Below are positions 2,281 through 7,748 of a stretch of DNA of 64,000 nucleotides, piece after piece. The stretch's first letter is position 1, and every line of letters begins with the position of its first letter. Origin of the DNA: Escherichia coli (GTDB lineage Bacteria > Pseudomonadota > Gammaproteobacteria > Enterobacterales > Enterobacteriaceae); NCBI RefSeq assembly GCF_050320075.1, contig NZ_CP190018.1. One strand, written 5' to 3'. A program made the position numbers and the translations under genes. The notes under the pieces are model-generated. The model did not search any database and had not been told where the DNA came from. It was given only the letters and a program-made list of their open reading frames with translations.

Positions 2281-2545
2281 ACGTCGCCAGTTGCGAAAAT
2301 TATTTACAGGGGGCAGCGTTAAGCATCTAAAGATCTTGTTCTATGATTAGAATGTTTCCTCGTTGCACTCTCGTATAGTTATTTAATGGGAAGATGTACT
2401 CTATATGTTGTGTTTTGGTGATAAATGAAGCCAAAGGAAGGAGATTTTGCTTGATTGATGGGCGCTCTTTGCTATACACCTTGTATTGAGAAGGAGAAGT
2501 AATCAAGGATTAAGCTGGCTTTTGTCAAAAATCTGAAAAGCTTTT

Positions 2546-2575
2546 TTGACTGAATACGATAGCGAGTTGTACTAT
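2546..2575 (+). promoter_or_regulatory. Putative sigma70 promoter (TTGACT-N18-TACTAT) for the first cargo operon, overlapped by an inverted repeat GTCAAAAA...TTTTTGAC
   Basis: -35 TTGACT at 2546-2551 and -10 TACTAT at 2570-2575 read directly; inverted repeat arms at 2524-2531 and 2543-2550. Confidence 0.3.
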
Positions 2576-2609
2576 TTGCGCCCTCAAAAGTAACCGGCGG
2601 CTGGGTAAA

Positions 2610-2984
2610 ATGGGGAAGCAAGGCAAAGGCAAAGGCAACAAAAATCAGGTTAAGGTTACGTGGGCTCAGGCGTGGCGGGATGTAATGATAAGAGCCATGT
2701 CTAATGGTCAGTTGATACCTATTACCATCAGTATTATTTTAATGATTGCTGCATGGAGGTTACCAAAAACAGACTTGTCCAATTTAGCCTTCTCTATTGT
2801 TGATGGCTTTAAGGAGCATTCCTTGGTTGGTTGGGCTATCTCGGTAATAGTGGGTTTGGCTTGGTCTGCACATGCGCGAATCATGAGGCGCTGTTTTAGT
2901 TCCGAGGCACAGAGAATCGGTAACGAGAAAACAAAGTATCAACAAAGACAGACCACTCAAGCCTTGGGTACAAGTGATAAATAG
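2610..2984 (+). CDS. Small membrane protein, 124 aa, two predicted TM helices, basic Lys/Gly-rich N-terminus (cargo)
   Basis: ORF track; hydrophobic stretches LIPITISIILMIAAW and LVGWAISVIVGLAWSA; AT-rich relative to phage backbone; start codon choice uncertain. Confidence 0.55.
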   Translation: MGKQGKGKGNKNQVKVTWAQAWRDVMIRAMSNGQLIPITISIILMIAAWRLPKTDLSNLAFSIVDGFKEHSLVGWAISVIVGLAWSAHARIMRRCFSSEAQRIGNEKTKYQQRQTTQALGTSDK

Positions 2985-3004
2985 TTGTTTATTTAGGAGT
3001 TATT

Positions 3005-3562
3005 ATGCTGACAGTGCTGTTTTATGTGCTGTTGGGTTTAGGCGCAGCACACTTCATTTACGAGCGAATCATTTTGCCGTCCATCCGACTTCATTATAGA
3101 AACCAATTGTTTGCGCTTCGTGATGTCGCTAGGAGGAAAATCATTGATGGAGGTTCCGATACTTCCATGCAAGCGGCAACACTTGTGCATGACTCATTGA
3201 ATAACGCTATCAATAGATTGCATTTACTCACGTTGCCAAACAAATTTCGTGCTCAAAAGCGTATGGCAGAAAACCATGCAATAAGGCAGAAAATTCGGCG
3301 TGAGATAGATGTTTTCAAACGCTGTGATGATAGAGAAGTTGTTGATGTACTGTTTAAATCCGGTCGGATACTTGAAAATGTACTGTTATTCAATAGCTTA
3401 ATGTTATTGCTTTACATGTTTCCATTTGTCCTTGCTGTATGGTTCTGTGTTAGGGTCATAAAGACAGCAAGTAGTTTAGTACAGTGGGTCAAAGGAAGAG
3501 ATTTAGAGGAAGCTATAATGCTGCTTCCTGATACTCAGGTTGAAAAGGTTGTATACGCATAA
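3005..3562 (+). CDS. Membrane protein, 185 aa, hydrophobic N-terminal and C-terminal segments (cargo)
   Basis: ORF track; AGGAG-like RBS 7 nt upstream of ATG; 20 bp after the preceding ORF, so co-operonic; hydrophobic segments MLTVLFYVLLGLGAAHFIY and LMLLLYMFPFVLAVWFCV. Confidence 0.65.
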   Translation: MLTVLFYVLLGLGAAHFIYERIILPSIRLHYRNQLFALRDVARRKIIDGGSDTSMQAATLVHDSLNNAINRLHLLTLPNKFRAQKRMAENHAIRQKIRREIDVFKRCDDREVVDVLFKSGRILENVLLFNSLMLLLYMFPFVLAVWFCVRVIKTASSLVQWVKGRDLEEAIMLLPDTQVEKVVYA

Positions 3563-3590
3563 AAATCACCCCTTAGGGGGTGATTTTTTT
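3563..3590 (+). terminator. Rho-independent terminator after the two-gene membrane operon
   Basis: aatcacccc-TTAG-ggggtgatt stem-loop followed by T7 run immediately after the stop codon. Confidence 0.6.
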
Positions 3591-3801
3591 ACATGACTTT
3601 TGATTAGCTGACATTGTAAATCCGCATGTATCAGATGCATTGTTTTGCATGTGGAAATGGGTGTTTTCACTGCCAGCTATCGCTACATGTAGCAAAAACA
3701 CGGGCTTAATAAGAAATCATTCTGCCATAAGGCATAACTTCCCCGCGTGCTCAGGTATTGACGTCATAGATATGGATCTTTTTTAATCAAGGTATGGTAT
3801 T

Positions 3802-4749
3802 ATGAAGATATTTATTAGTTGGTCAGGTCAGGACAGCCTGGAGATAGCAAAAGTATTACGGGATTGGATACCGAATGTTATTCAAGTAGCTGAGCCGTAC
3901 GTATCAGCGGAAGATATTGATAAAGGCACTCGCTGGGCGACTGATATATCAAAGGAACTTGATGACTCTTCTTATGGGATTATTTGCCTTACAAAAAATA
4001 ATATTAATGCACCGTGGATAAATTTTGAGGCGGGTGCTTTAGGTAAAAAGGTTGATAAGAGCCGGGTTAGTCCTTTCTTGTTTAAAATTAAACCATCTGA
4101 GATAACAGGCCCAATATTACAATTCCAGTATACTCGTTCGGATGATAAGAACGATATTTTGAAGTTGATGTTGTCAATAAATAATCAAGCAGGATTTTTG
4201 ACTGAAGAACGCTTAACTAAAGCTTTCGAGCAATGGTGGCCAAGTTTAGAGCGTGAGTTAGATAACATTCAAGATATTAACCCTGTAGATAAAGATTCCA
4301 CTAAAAAAACAAAAGGTGATTCGACTTCTGAGATACAAAATCTTTCCAAAATTGTTGAAAGTTTGCTGGATATTAGCCGAACAAATCACCAATTATTGCG
4401 TGATCCAGCATCATTATTGCCAGAAGAATATGTTAGCAAAATAATAAACAGGGAAGGGCGTAAAGAAACTGTTTTAAAAATTGTAGCTTCTGATTTATTA
4501 TCCATGCATCATTCACTAATTCGTGTAAAAAGAAGATTTATTCGCCGTGGTATTGATGAAACATCTAGGAGCGAGTTAATTGAATCATTAAATAAAATGA
4601 TAATGGATTGTTCTAGAGTAATCGCTCACTTAGATAATTATTGTGGGGCTTCATCAAACAATATGTTCAATAGTGCGCTTAGATTGCGGACCAGAAATTT
4701 AATTGACATGATGGATGAGGAGGATGCAGAACGGGATGAAATGGAATAA
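3802..4749 (+). CDS. TIR-like domain protein, 315 aa: N-terminal TIR-like fold (~130 aa) plus helical C-terminal domain of unknown function (cargo, candidate defence protein)
   Basis: N-terminus MKIFISWSGQDS...GIICLT...APWINFEAGAL matches the bacterial TIR/TIR-like signature (FISYS-type strand 1, conserved W..E.G motif) by eye; no HMM search run. Confidence 0.65.
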   Translation: MKIFISWSGQDSLEIAKVLRDWIPNVIQVAEPYVSAEDIDKGTRWATDISKELDDSSYGIICLTKNNINAPWINFEAGALGKKVDKSRVSPFLFKIKPSEITGPILQFQYTRSDDKNDILKLMLSINNQAGFLTEERLTKAFEQWWPSLERELDNIQDINPVDKDSTKKTKGDSTSEIQNLSKIVESLLDISRTNHQLLRDPASLLPEEYVSKIINREGRKETVLKIVASDLLSMHHSLIRVKRRFIRRGIDETSRSELIESLNKMIMDCSRVIAHLDNYCGASSNNMFNSALRLRTRNLIDMMDEEDAERDEME

Positions 4750-4797
4750 TCAATTTTGACTAATCATAAATAATTTTGCATATATAAACTTATAATG

Positions 4798-4830
4798 CCG
4801 CAGCCGCTATTTTTCAGCGGCTGTATATCG
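4798..4830 (+). terminator. Putative terminator downstream of the TIR-like gene
   Basis: cagccgct-atttttc-agcggctg stem-loop followed by a short T-containing tract; weaker than the other terminators. Confidence 0.35.
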
Positions 4831-5293
4831 CTTATAATGGGTATGTTATTTTTATTTTGATAAAATCATTAAAATTGTCGATGTTATATGAATGCACATG
4901 TATTATTAATGTTAGAAGATTATGCCTGCTTACGGCTATTGTGCTGAATTCAACTATGAACGCATCAGTATTAAAATCGTTCCATGAAATGTTCTTCGTC
5001 TACAGCAGATGATGGGCAACGAAAAAATGACGCTGAGTGAGTTGGTCGGGGAGAATTGTTAGAGGTATTTATGGAGTGGTTTAATAATATCGGTCAATCC
5101 TGAGTTGCAGCATCACATAGACGATAGGGAATCTCTCCAGTCGTTCTGGAATGGCAGCGTTGAACAACAAGCACAGCGAGGCGTTAGATGCCCATCAGAT
5201 TGACACAGAGGGTTTATGAATCGCTGGGATTTACTTAGTTTGAAAAATAATATATTTATATGTTTTTGTATTGTGTTTGTTAAGGAGTTTGGA

Positions 5294-5500
5294 TTGAAAA
5301 GAAAACTGATTTGTGTTATGGCTTTTTGGGGGGCGTTGCTGGCTGGTTGTAATGAGAGTAATAAAAAAGAAGTTGAGGGTTGTATTGAAAGAGGTGTCCA
5401 ATATTTTATAGAGATTGGTTCTTACCCTAAATTAAGTGATGGGCGTGATGCTGTGAAAGTTGCTACTGAACGTTGTAATAGAACAATAACGGCTTTCTGA
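5294..5500 (+). CDS. Small putative lipoprotein (about 68 aa precursor), signal peptide with lipobox LAGC (cargo)
   Basis: In-frame TTG at 5294 with TAAGGAG RBS 7 nt upstream gives MKRKLICVMAFWGALLAGC; the track starts at 5216 and an ATG lies at 5318; stop overlaps next start (TGATAATG). Confidence 0.45.
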   Translation: MKRKLICVMAFWGALLAGCNESNKKEVEGCIERGVQYFIEIGSYPKLSDGRDAVKVATERCNRTITAF

Positions 5501-5502
5501 TA

Positions 5503-6420
5503 ATGGATTATACGAGCTATATAATAGGACAGCTTCAGGTTGAGGATATTATTGATGCAATTAAAGGCGTTAATAATACTAATGTCATAAAAGATTATGT
5601 GCTGCCTGTAGTATTACCAATTATATCTTCTGTGCTGAGTTACTTTATTGCAACTAGGTTGTTTTATCGGCAGGAGTACCTTAAAGCACAAAGAAGAAAG
5701 GTAAGCGTTGTAAATAAATGTATTTATGACTACTTTTCTGCAATGACAACGTTGTTGCAAATTAAAGGGAATTATTATGGTGGGGTAAGTATAAGTGAAA
5801 ATCCTATCGAGAGGGCTTTAGCTTTTCCTGTTGTGGTTTTTTCTGGTGCTCCTCTATCATCAGATTTAAGTGAGTTGGCCTGTATATTGAGTCAAAAGGG
5901 AGTAGGGAATAATAGAGAGCCAGCAAAGACTACTAACTGGGGGGATGCTTTTGCTGTTAGTGATATAGCAAGAAGGTTTAACAGCCTATTGGCTGCATTA
6001 AATGTTAGGAATGATTTTGATGACACCTATAGAGGAATGATTATTGAATCAACAGGTTCACCTTTGCCTACGATGCGTTTTAAAAATGATGATATTGTTA
6101 ATGCTATAGGTAGTAATAAGGCAGCTTATTACATTGATATTACTGAGCAAATAATGATTATGATAGATGTTTTGTTGCTTGATATTAATCTGTTGCTCAA
6201 AGAGTTGCCATTGTATGCTGAATCGCTGTTTGACAAAAGAGTAATGCAAGAAGATTCAGGGATTCTTAAATTCAATGATTTGCACGAACGTTTTCCTCTA
6301 CTTATGAAACCTGTAACGCCACCTTCGATTAAACTCATGTCTGATTATTTGGGGTACAGTGAAGATGAGATCTTACGACGCTATCCATACCCGTTCTTTA
6401 ATATGCATGATTGTGAATGA
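5503..6420 (+). CDS. Hypothetical protein, 305 aa, single N-proximal TM helix, no domain recognised (cargo)
   Basis: ORF track; translationally coupled to the upstream lipoprotein ORF; hydrophobic segment VLPVVLPIISSVLSYFIATRLFY; strongly AT-rich. Confidence 0.65.
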   Translation: MDYTSYIIGQLQVEDIIDAIKGVNNTNVIKDYVLPVVLPIISSVLSYFIATRLFYRQEYLKAQRRKVSVVNKCIYDYFSAMTTLLQIKGNYYGGVSISENPIERALAFPVVVFSGAPLSSDLSELACILSQKGVGNNREPAKTTNWGDAFAVSDIARRFNSLLAALNVRNDFDDTYRGMIIESTGSPLPTMRFKNDDIVNAIGSNKAAYYIDITEQIMIMIDVLLLDINLLLKELPLYAESLFDKRVMQEDSGILKFNDLHERFPLLMKPVTPPSIKLMSDYLGYSEDEILRRYPYPFFNMHDCE

Positions 6421-6524
6421 ATGTGCATATGTCAGAAGCCGTTTTTATTGTCAGTTATCGTCAGTGCTGGCGCGCTCTTGGAGTGTTCATGCAACTGCAT
6501 TAAAACCGCCCCACGAAGCGGGCG

Positions 6525-6713: not shown

Positions 6714-7748
6714 TCAGCCGTTGTCAGTGTCCAGTGAGTAGTTTTTAAAGCGGATGACCTCCTGACCGAGCCAGCCGTTTATTTCCCGAATCCTGTCCTG
6801 TAACGGGATAAGCTCATTGCGGACAAAGACCTTTGCCACTTTCTCAATATCGCCCAGTGACCCGACGTTCTCCGGCTTGCCGCCCATCAACTGAAAGGGG
6901 ATGCGGTGCGCGTCCAGCAGGTCAGCGGCGCTGGCTTTTTTGATATTAAAAAAATCGTCCTTCGTTGCCACTTCACTGAGCGGGATAATTTTAATGCCGT
7001 CGGCTTTCCCCTGTGGGGCATAGAGAAACAGATTTTTAAAGTTATTGCGGCCTTTCGACTTCACCATGTTTTCGCGAAGCATTTCGATATCGTTGCGATC
7101 CTGCACGGCATCGGTGACGTACATGATGTATCCGGCATGCGCGCCGTTTTCGTAATACTTGCGGCGGAACAGCGTGGCCGACTCATTCAGCCAGGCAGAG
7201 TTAAGGGCGCTGAGATATTCCGGCAGGCCGTACAGCTCCTGATTAATATCCGGCTCCAGCAGGTGAAACACGGAGCCGGGCGCGAAAGGTGTCGGCTCGT
7301 TGAAGGACGGCACCCACCAGTAAACATCCTCCTCAACACCACGGCGGGTATATTTTGCCGGTGAGGTTTCCAGTCTGATGACCTTACCGGTGGTGCTGTA
7401 GCGCTTTTCCAGAAACGCATTACCGAACACCAGAAAATCCAGCACAAAGCGGCTGAAATCCTGCTGGGAAAGCCACGGGTGCGGAATAAACGTTGAAGCC
7501 AGAATATTACGTTTGACGTAAATCGGTGAGCTGTGATGTACGGCAGCACGCAGGCTTTTTGCCAGACCGGTAAAGCTGACCGGTGGCTCATACCATCTGC
7601 CGTTACTGATGCACTCGACGTAATCCAGAATGTCACGGCGGTCGAGTACCGGCACCGGCTCACCAAAGGTGAATGCCTCCATTTTCGGGGCGCTGGCGGT
7701 CATTGTTTTTGCCGCAGGTTGCGGTGTTTTCCCTTTTTTCTTGCTCAT
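6714..7748 (-). CDS. Q: Portal protein (P2 gpQ-like)
   Basis: 344 aa, same length and position as P2 Q; start overlaps stop of terminase gene by 1 nt. Confidence 0.9.
   Translation of the reverse strand: MSKKKGKTPQPAAKTMTASAPKMEAFTFGEPVPVLDRRDILDYVECISNGRWYEPPVSFTGLAKSLRAAVHHSSPIYVKRNILASTFIPHPWLSQQDFSRFVLDFLVFGNAFLEKRYSTTGKVIRLETSPAKYTRRGVEEDVYWWVPSFNEPTPFAPGSVFHLLEPDINQELYGLPEYLSALNSAWLNESATLFRRKYYENGAHAGYIMYVTDAVQDRNDIEMLRENMVKSKGRNNFKNLFLYAPQGKADGIKIIPLSEVATKDDFFNIKKASAADLLDAHRIPFQLMGGKPENVGSLGDIEKVAKVFVRNELIPLQDRIREINGWLGQEVIRFKNYSLDTDNG

Follow-up and report, generated by a model that had tools for sequence, protein, structure and literature searches.

Do a TIR gene and two adjoining genes for small membrane proteins, carried together by a P2-like prophage of Escherichia coli, constitute a single signalling pathway, or are they separate units that have come to lie next to each other? 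The question is raised by a locus in a 64,000-nucleotide stretch of E. coli DNA (contig NZ_CP190018.1, assembly GCF_050320075.1; hereafter the window), in which three adjoining open reading frames (ORFs) follow one another on the + strand in the order 2TM (2610-2984), 1TM (3005-3562) and TIR (3802-4749). We consider it fairly probable that this cassette is made up of two autonomous units side by side, and not of one signalling pathway. The 5' end of the window falls within replication gene A of P2 type (1-2280), the - strand carries the portal gene (6714-7748) with the terminase gene next to it, and the insert between gene A and the portal gene is of low GC content (33-44%, versus ~53% for the P2 backbone). 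The three-gene set belongs to a P2-like prophage and is sited in its cos-proximal gpA-gpQ hotspot, which has been defined as the cargo slot of old and tin, and the gpA-portal slot is enriched for defence genes (PMC9122126). An initial annotation of the sequence had placed three ORFs of 124, 185 and 315 amino acids (aa) in this old/tin slot between A and cos; the flanking genes and the cited definition of the hotspot confirm the placement, and the coordinates and lengths are exactly as it gave them.

The locus is, with effective certainty, the '2TM + 1TM + TIR' anti-phage cassette of the P2-like phage AC1, whose DefenseFinder name is Rst_2TM_1TM_TIR. All three proteins match the PADLOC families 2TM-TIR (2.2e-58, full length), 1TM-TIR (2.7e-75) and TIR-TM (2.3e-118) end to end, at both protein and profile level, and positions 2300-6524 of the window show 99.7% DNA identity to phage P2_AC1 (OV192280). 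The primers used to clone the AC1 fragment in pFD240, taken from Table S2 of PMC9122126, each match the window exactly once, at 2345-2370 (+) and 5111-5135 (-), and delimit the equivalent of the pFD240 insert (2345-5135, +). The 1TM protein is 100% identical to that of AC1, the TIR protein is identical at 314 of 315 residues, with the A283V replacement falling in its variable C-terminus, and a GKGKGK run of the 2TM protein shows an indel of one Gly-Lys unit. This indel corresponds to one 6-bp unit of a GGCAAA-type repeat (2619-2642), is the sole length difference from AC1 in the three genes and looks like the outcome of repeat slippage.

AC1 lysogens resist phages lambda and LF82_P8, and the cloned fragment in pFD240 reproduces this resistance and also blocks P2 (Rousset 2022, PMC9122126); only the whole three-gene fragment was cloned, without gene deletions (PMC9122126). 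Since the locus matches the AC1 cassette, the finding is already known, and the locus itself adds nothing new, being a further copy of a cassette shown to be protective in 2022. The likeness to a 2TM/1TM/TIR module noted in the initial annotation is thereby substantiated, by the PADLOC profiles as well as by the identity with AC1, and the ORFs match an already named system exactly, the very outcome that had been set there against novelty. The accompanying suggestion of a distinct or variant architecture fails because the gap, the terminator and the lack of a transmembrane (TM) segment in the TIR protein are all shared by AC1; with the degree of DNA identity reported above, the locus represents the reference architecture. 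Literature searches by system name, accession and phage name for mechanistic follow-up on the cassette returned catalogue mentions only.

Co-inheritance of signal generator and effector is what a TIR-to-membrane pathway predicts, and we examined it in a comparison that took in ~120 related loci overall. It was not found across diverged homologues: the trio occurs only as one cassette of at least 99% identity, present in 13 of 5,426 complete E. coli genomes (all with at least 99.2% nucleotide identity). The TIR family itself is large, with 1,511 clusters (at 90% identity) in one search, and a scan of one genome per species yielded 80 TIR loci in Bacteroidota, Bacillota, Pseudomonadota, Acidobacteriota, Spirochaetota and others, the homologues showing ~50% identity over residues 1-205. 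Homologues of 2TM and 1TM accompany the TIR gene in a single one of these 80 loci (L007; JAIJJM010000013.1, a 'Collinsella sp.' metagenome-assembled genome, MAG). The TIR, 2TM, 1TM and 305-aa proteins encoded there are identical to those of the window and stand in the same gpA-to-portal order, so that contamination of an actinobacterial MAG during binning is the most likely origin of the contig. Outside the AC1 cassette, no 2TM or 1TM homologue was found near TIR-family genes in 96 loci, which include 79 species representatives, loci L003-L006 and the closest relatives of the TIR gene (L110-L123); in all of the latter, rechecked at E <= 0.01, the membrane pair is absent.

The settings of these TIR homologues are diverse. 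Those of 78% (E. coli, L114) and 74% (Klebsiella, L111) identity are the only gene between gpA and the portal gene of P2-like prophages, those of 70% and 61% are the sole cargo of ~4.9 kb Rep/Mob/RelE plasmids found in hundreds of assemblies, another of 61% (Serratia) is a lone chromosomal gene, and one of 59% (L119, 1135-2699, and L120) lies beside a SLATT + ThsB_TIR pair. The small plasmids (L116-L118, L121-L123) consist of Rep, MobC/relaxase and RelE/antitoxin genes, with the start of the TIR gene overlapping the end of rep, and one of their TIR clusters is listed in 365 assembly-index blocks. In L119 and L120 the ThsB_TIR gene is divergent and adjoined by the SLATT membrane protein gene, on a Rop-carrying, plasmid-like contig, which constitutes a different pairing of TIR and membrane proteins. 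In Burkholderia ambifaria (L006, 2535-4463) the TIR homologue is located directly 3' of an OLD-family ATPase/TOPRIM nuclease gene, in a defence-island-like context. Clustering of the neighbouring ORFs was also used to look for a hidden conserved partner of the TIR family; tyrosine-recombinase-like proteins, at 11 of 86 loci, are the sole recurring family, and no other partner emerged. Likewise, hydropathy revealed no excess of membrane proteins among the adjacent same-strand ORFs of TIR loci (22/113, against a background of 153/650).

The membrane pair, too, is found unaccompanied by the TIR gene. With 49 clusters, mainly in Enterobacterales, the 1TM family is small, and in the 23 pair loci recovered the 2TM gene always lies directly 5' of 1TM; both genes of the three divergent pairs examined (L087-L089) were assigned to their families by PADLOC. 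A TIR gene is present in only two of the 23 loci, both identical to AC1, and absent from the 20 pair loci with readable flanks. Nine pair-only loci occupy the P2 gpA-portal hotspot, and the remaining ones are found in other prophage (lambdoid) cargo slots, as for instance between the Q antiterminator and holin genes. On the comparative sequence evidence, then, the TIR gene and the membrane pair are shown to be separable. The system, which is catalogued as one that requires all three genes, was barely, if at all, detected in bacterial genomes in a large survey (bioRxiv 10.1101/2024.10.26.620412). We attribute this rarity to the TIR gene and the pair each circulating widely alone, and the near-absence of the trio fits a one-off juxtaposition.

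The region between the two units agrees with this separation. An intrinsic terminator (3561-3590, +), with a 12-bp stem, a UUAG loop and a T-run, ends the membrane operon; its hairpin (3561-3588) folds at -17.8 kcal/mol (z -5.2), and none of 200 shuffles folds as well. A consensus scanner reported no + strand terminator in the 1TM-TIR gap, though folding shows one, probably because A/U pairs prolong the stem into the T-run. The stop codon of 1TM and the start of TIR are 239 nt apart, or ~210 nt counted from the end of the terminator, and the terminator and ~210-bp gap announced in the initial annotation are thus both real. Terminators equivalent to that of the window also end the pair-only loci, 3' of the 1TM gene. 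Homology to pair-only P2 hotspots extends to a last stretch at 3624-3652 (+; GCATG...TGCAT...TTTGCATG) in alignments A6 and A5, and a region of ~115 bp (3687-3801, +) travels with the TIR gene, being conserved in the TIR-only hotspots of E. coli L114 and Klebsiella L111, where gene A, and not 1TM, lies upstream of it. The junction of the modules falls between ~3653 and 3686. Within the ~115-bp region we identified by eye a putative promoter, with -35/-10-like TTGACG (3758-3763) and TTTAAT (3782-3787) separated by 18 nt. GC content at third codon positions is 0.39-0.46 in the pair genes versus 0.30 in the TIR gene. The initial annotation had taken terminator and gap as a divider; the comparative data support two separable units, but the same arrangement is present in the published system and does not set this locus apart from it.

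One integrated three-component system, in which the TIR protein would convert NAD+ into a nucleotide messenger and this would switch on the membrane proteins, leading to membrane permeabilisation and cell death in a Thoeris-, CBASS- or Pycsar-like manner, is an unlikely reading of these data. A TIR-made messenger activating membrane proteins is nevertheless what the original authors proposed for the AC1 cassette itself (PMC9122126), and the three genes are adjoining, co-oriented and active when cloned together. The cassette is also intact in the 13 E. coli genomes, which come from varied hosts, and the conserved catalytic glutamate renders a signalling product chemically possible. What weighs more heavily is that the three genes are not co-inherited beyond a single near-identical cassette, that TIR and pair each occur alone, the P2 hotspot included in both cases and the ~4.9 kb plasmids in the former, and that a terminator and a separately inherited upstream region stand between them. 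Moreover, Pfam, NCBIfam and PADLOC detected no ligand-binding domain (SLOG, Macro, SAVED or cNMP-binding) in either membrane protein, with structure modelled for the 1TM protein only.

The two membrane proteins form a well-defined operon, in line with the initial annotation, and their hydrophobic segments were scored on the Kyte-Doolittle scale with a 19-residue window. The 124-aa 2TM protein (2610-2984, +; PHROG 33772) has a basic N-terminus, hydrophobic segments at residues 33-51 and 71-89 and a basic C-terminal tail conserved in the family alignment (FSxEAxRIGxEKTxxQQ...LGTSD). The 185-aa 1TM protein (3005-3562, +) has hydrophobic segments near its N- and C-terminal ends (residues 1-19 and 131-149), at either end of a ~110 aa helical domain, and its AlphaFold 2 model is an all-helical bundle with a predicted local distance difference test score (pLDDT) of 86. 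The catalogue names are misleading here, for the '1TM' protein contains two hydrophobic segments, whereas PADLOC's 'TIR-TM' protein lacks any. Pfam searches with the 2TM protein and with 23 members of the 1TM family gave no family, a Foldseek search of the PDB with the 1TM model gave no significant match, and NCBIfam and PHROGs were likewise uninformative as to the function of the pair.

Given these proteins, it might be argued that the TIR gene is the sole defence gene and that the pair is prophage cargo with no relation to it, serving for example lysis timing, lysogenic conversion or the envelope and contributing nothing to the phenotype; we regard this as quite unlikely. In lambdoid prophages the pair does adjoin lysis genes, either in the interval between the Q antiterminator and holin genes or after a lysis-cassette gene of the DUF2514 family, and the layout of the 2TM protein, with two hydrophobic segments and a charged C-terminal tail, in our reading resembles that of small holins. 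Small plasmids and some P2 hotspots, for their part, have the TIR gene as their only cargo. However, the pair alone fills the defence-enriched gpA-portal slot in at least nine P2-like elements, and membrane proteins are often exclusion or abortive-infection factors.

The 315-aa TIR protein (3802-4749, +) matches Pfam TIR_2 over residues 3-113 (E 1.2e-8) and, as reported above, the PADLOC TIR-TM profile, so that the N-terminal TIR domain named in the initial annotation is upheld. Its claim of a protein without TM segments also stands: the segment hinted at by the name 'TIR-TM' is ruled out by a hydropathy maximum of 1.04, and the protein is predicted to be soluble. The AlphaFold model, built with 30 homologues, is of moderate confidence (mean pLDDT 70.6) and comprises an alpha/beta domain of five strands (residues 1-155), followed by a disordered linker (~160-175) and long helices; the fold is the flavodoxin-like TIR fold of catalytic TIR NADases. 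Glu76 (codon 4027-4029, +), in the motif W72-x3-E76, is the predicted catalytic glutamate. Both E76 and W72 are invariant in the 30 homologues, which span 42-78% identity, and a profile of the TIR part aligned to the PDB places E76 on the glutamate of WTNYE in AbTir, WTEYE in BtTir and WCLDE in AtTIR, the catalytic residue of these TIR NADases. These residue-level alignments came solely from the TIR-only profile; PDB searches with the full protein and the full-length profile returned, for the C-terminal half, only coiled-coil and designed-helix noise. Past the TIR domain, a conserved helix and an LLRDPxxLLPxxY motif (residues 175-210) are recognisable in the 30 homologues, and the rest of the C-terminus is variable and helical with an acidic tail, resembling only generic helical bundles. 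That the domain might lack enzymatic function and act as a scaffold for protein-protein contacts, in the manner of bacterial SEFIR-like proteins or the TIR adaptors of animals, is highly improbable in view of a W-x3-E motif that is invariant across phyla and whose glutamate coincides with the catalytic one of AbTir, BtTir and AtTIR, and of the ~50% identity that the E. coli protein shares over residues 1-205 with those of Bacillota or Bacteroidota, which argues for strong constraint as at an active site.

Bringing these lines together, we lean, if only slightly, towards Rst_2TM_1TM_TIR being an accidental juxtaposition of a widespread and highly conserved, stand-alone, single-gene TIR NADase defence, with phages, small plasmids and elements bearing tyrosine-recombinase-like genes as its carriers, and an independent two-gene prophage membrane module with an exclusion or abortive-infection function of its own. 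The first unit (2610-3590) would be a tightly linked operon for two small inner-membrane proteins, with its own terminator, that circulates alone among enterobacterial prophages; its products are predicted to act at the membrane, most likely in superinfection exclusion or membrane-based abortive infection. The second (3687-4749) would be a single gene for a soluble TIR protein, together with the upstream region that accompanies it. Infection would probably make the TIR domains cluster, Glu76 would then cleave NAD+, and starvation of the cell for NAD+ could bring about abortive infection, by analogy with SpbK and other defences that rely on a single TIR polypeptide; sensing or self-association is likely to reside in the conserved helix and motif (residues 175-210) and in the helical C-terminus. 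NADase activity, its trigger and the independent action of both units are what we infer from this picture.

Several points weigh against two autonomous units. The published defence phenotype belongs to the whole three-gene fragment only, with no gene-by-gene split, and co-occurrence data establish that each part can persist by itself; they do not show a lack of cooperation between parts that occur side by side. There is ample precedent for TIR enzymes signalling to membrane effectors, and nucleotide binding by a small helical membrane protein need not involve a recognisable domain. Because several of the pair-only loci are near-duplicates, they amount to about ten independent lineages and not 21. 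Finally, the alignments of the TIR protein to solved TIR structures have weak E-values (0.016-0.25), and its structure model is, as noted, only moderately confident.

Further features of the region complete the description of the locus. A sigma-70-like promoter candidate, TTGACT-18 nt-TACTAT (2546-2575, +; 9/12 matches in a consensus scan), lies 5' of the membrane operon; promoter-like sites in the region are no more numerous than in shuffles, and the candidate constitutes weak evidence. A GC-rich hairpin 3' of the TIR stop codon (4799-4824, +; -18.2 kcal/mol, z -2.3) may represent a weak terminator without a T-run, the evidence again being weak. A scan of the whole window for tRNA and tmRNA genes found none.

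Downstream, and outside the published clone, a third cargo module (5294-6420, +) comprises a 68-aa lipoprotein-like ORF and the gene for a 305-aa protein with one N-terminal hydrophobic segment. The small ORF has a TTG start at 5294, preceded by AAGGAG at 5283, and a lipoprotein-like signal (MKRKLICVMAFWGALLAG|C). The RefSeq annotation has a 94-aa ORF here (5216-5500), in place of which the 68-aa version is probably the true gene: coverage by the PHROG profile is limited to residues 27-94 of the longer ORF, the E. coli MS 16-3 counterpart is annotated with 68 aa, and in AC1, L090 and L091 the 68-aa ORF is unaffected by a frameshift that lies upstream of 5294. The module has no match in Pfam, NCBIfam or PADLOC, even when distant relatives of the 305-aa protein are included, and corresponds to PHROGs 32041 and 21267, for which function is not annotated. 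The 305-aa family has ~170 distant representatives, and in E. coli MS 16-3 (L115) the module is found by itself in the P2-like hotspot, the other two being absent. A search of the literature gave no trace of its having been tested.

If the two-system reading holds, nearly all real instances of either system escape the three-gene detection rules now in use. Should each unit be active alone, defence-annotation tools ought to give the TIR gene and the membrane pair separate scores, the single-gene TIR proteins, a large pan-bacterial family, would have to be counted as a defence family, and a small, experimentally tractable two-gene membrane module would emerge as a new candidate exclusion system.

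Among known systems, Rst_2TM_1TM_TIR (PDLC02978, PDLC02977, PDLC03016) has the same genes, order, spacing, terminator and hotspot as the window, which departs from it solely in the aforementioned Gly-Lys indel of 2TM and A283V of TIR. The genes old and tin of P2, which act in phage exclusion, share the cos-proximal gpA-gpQ slot, but their proteins are unrelated, and the Old and Tin profiles of PADLOC gave no match to the five hotspot proteins of the window. The membrane effectors of CBASS and Pycsar and the superinfection-exclusion proteins of prophages are, like the pair, small inner-membrane proteins of defence or prophage cargo, although they show neither homology nor a fold match to the pair, in which no nucleotide-binding domain was detected. 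Thoeris, in which the TIR protein ThsB produces a signal of the cADPR (cyclic ADP-ribose) type for ThsA, is the analogy chosen by the original authors for the AC1 cassette, and the window likewise has a TIR with a catalytic glutamate beside candidate effector genes; it lacks, however, a ThsA-like effector with SLOG, Macro or SIR2 domains, and its TIR and supposed effectors are not co-inherited. SpbK, from the Bacillus subtilis element ICEBs1, resembles the TIR protein of the window in combining a TIR and a non-TIR domain in one polypeptide on a mobile element. Its domain order is reversed, with an N-terminal sensor and a C-terminal TIR, and the two proteins show no similarity in sequence beyond the TIR domain. 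As a precedent for single-gene TIR NADase defence on a mobile element, it nonetheless provides a working model for a stand-alone TIR protein that senses a phage protein and clusters into an NADase (PMC12847820).

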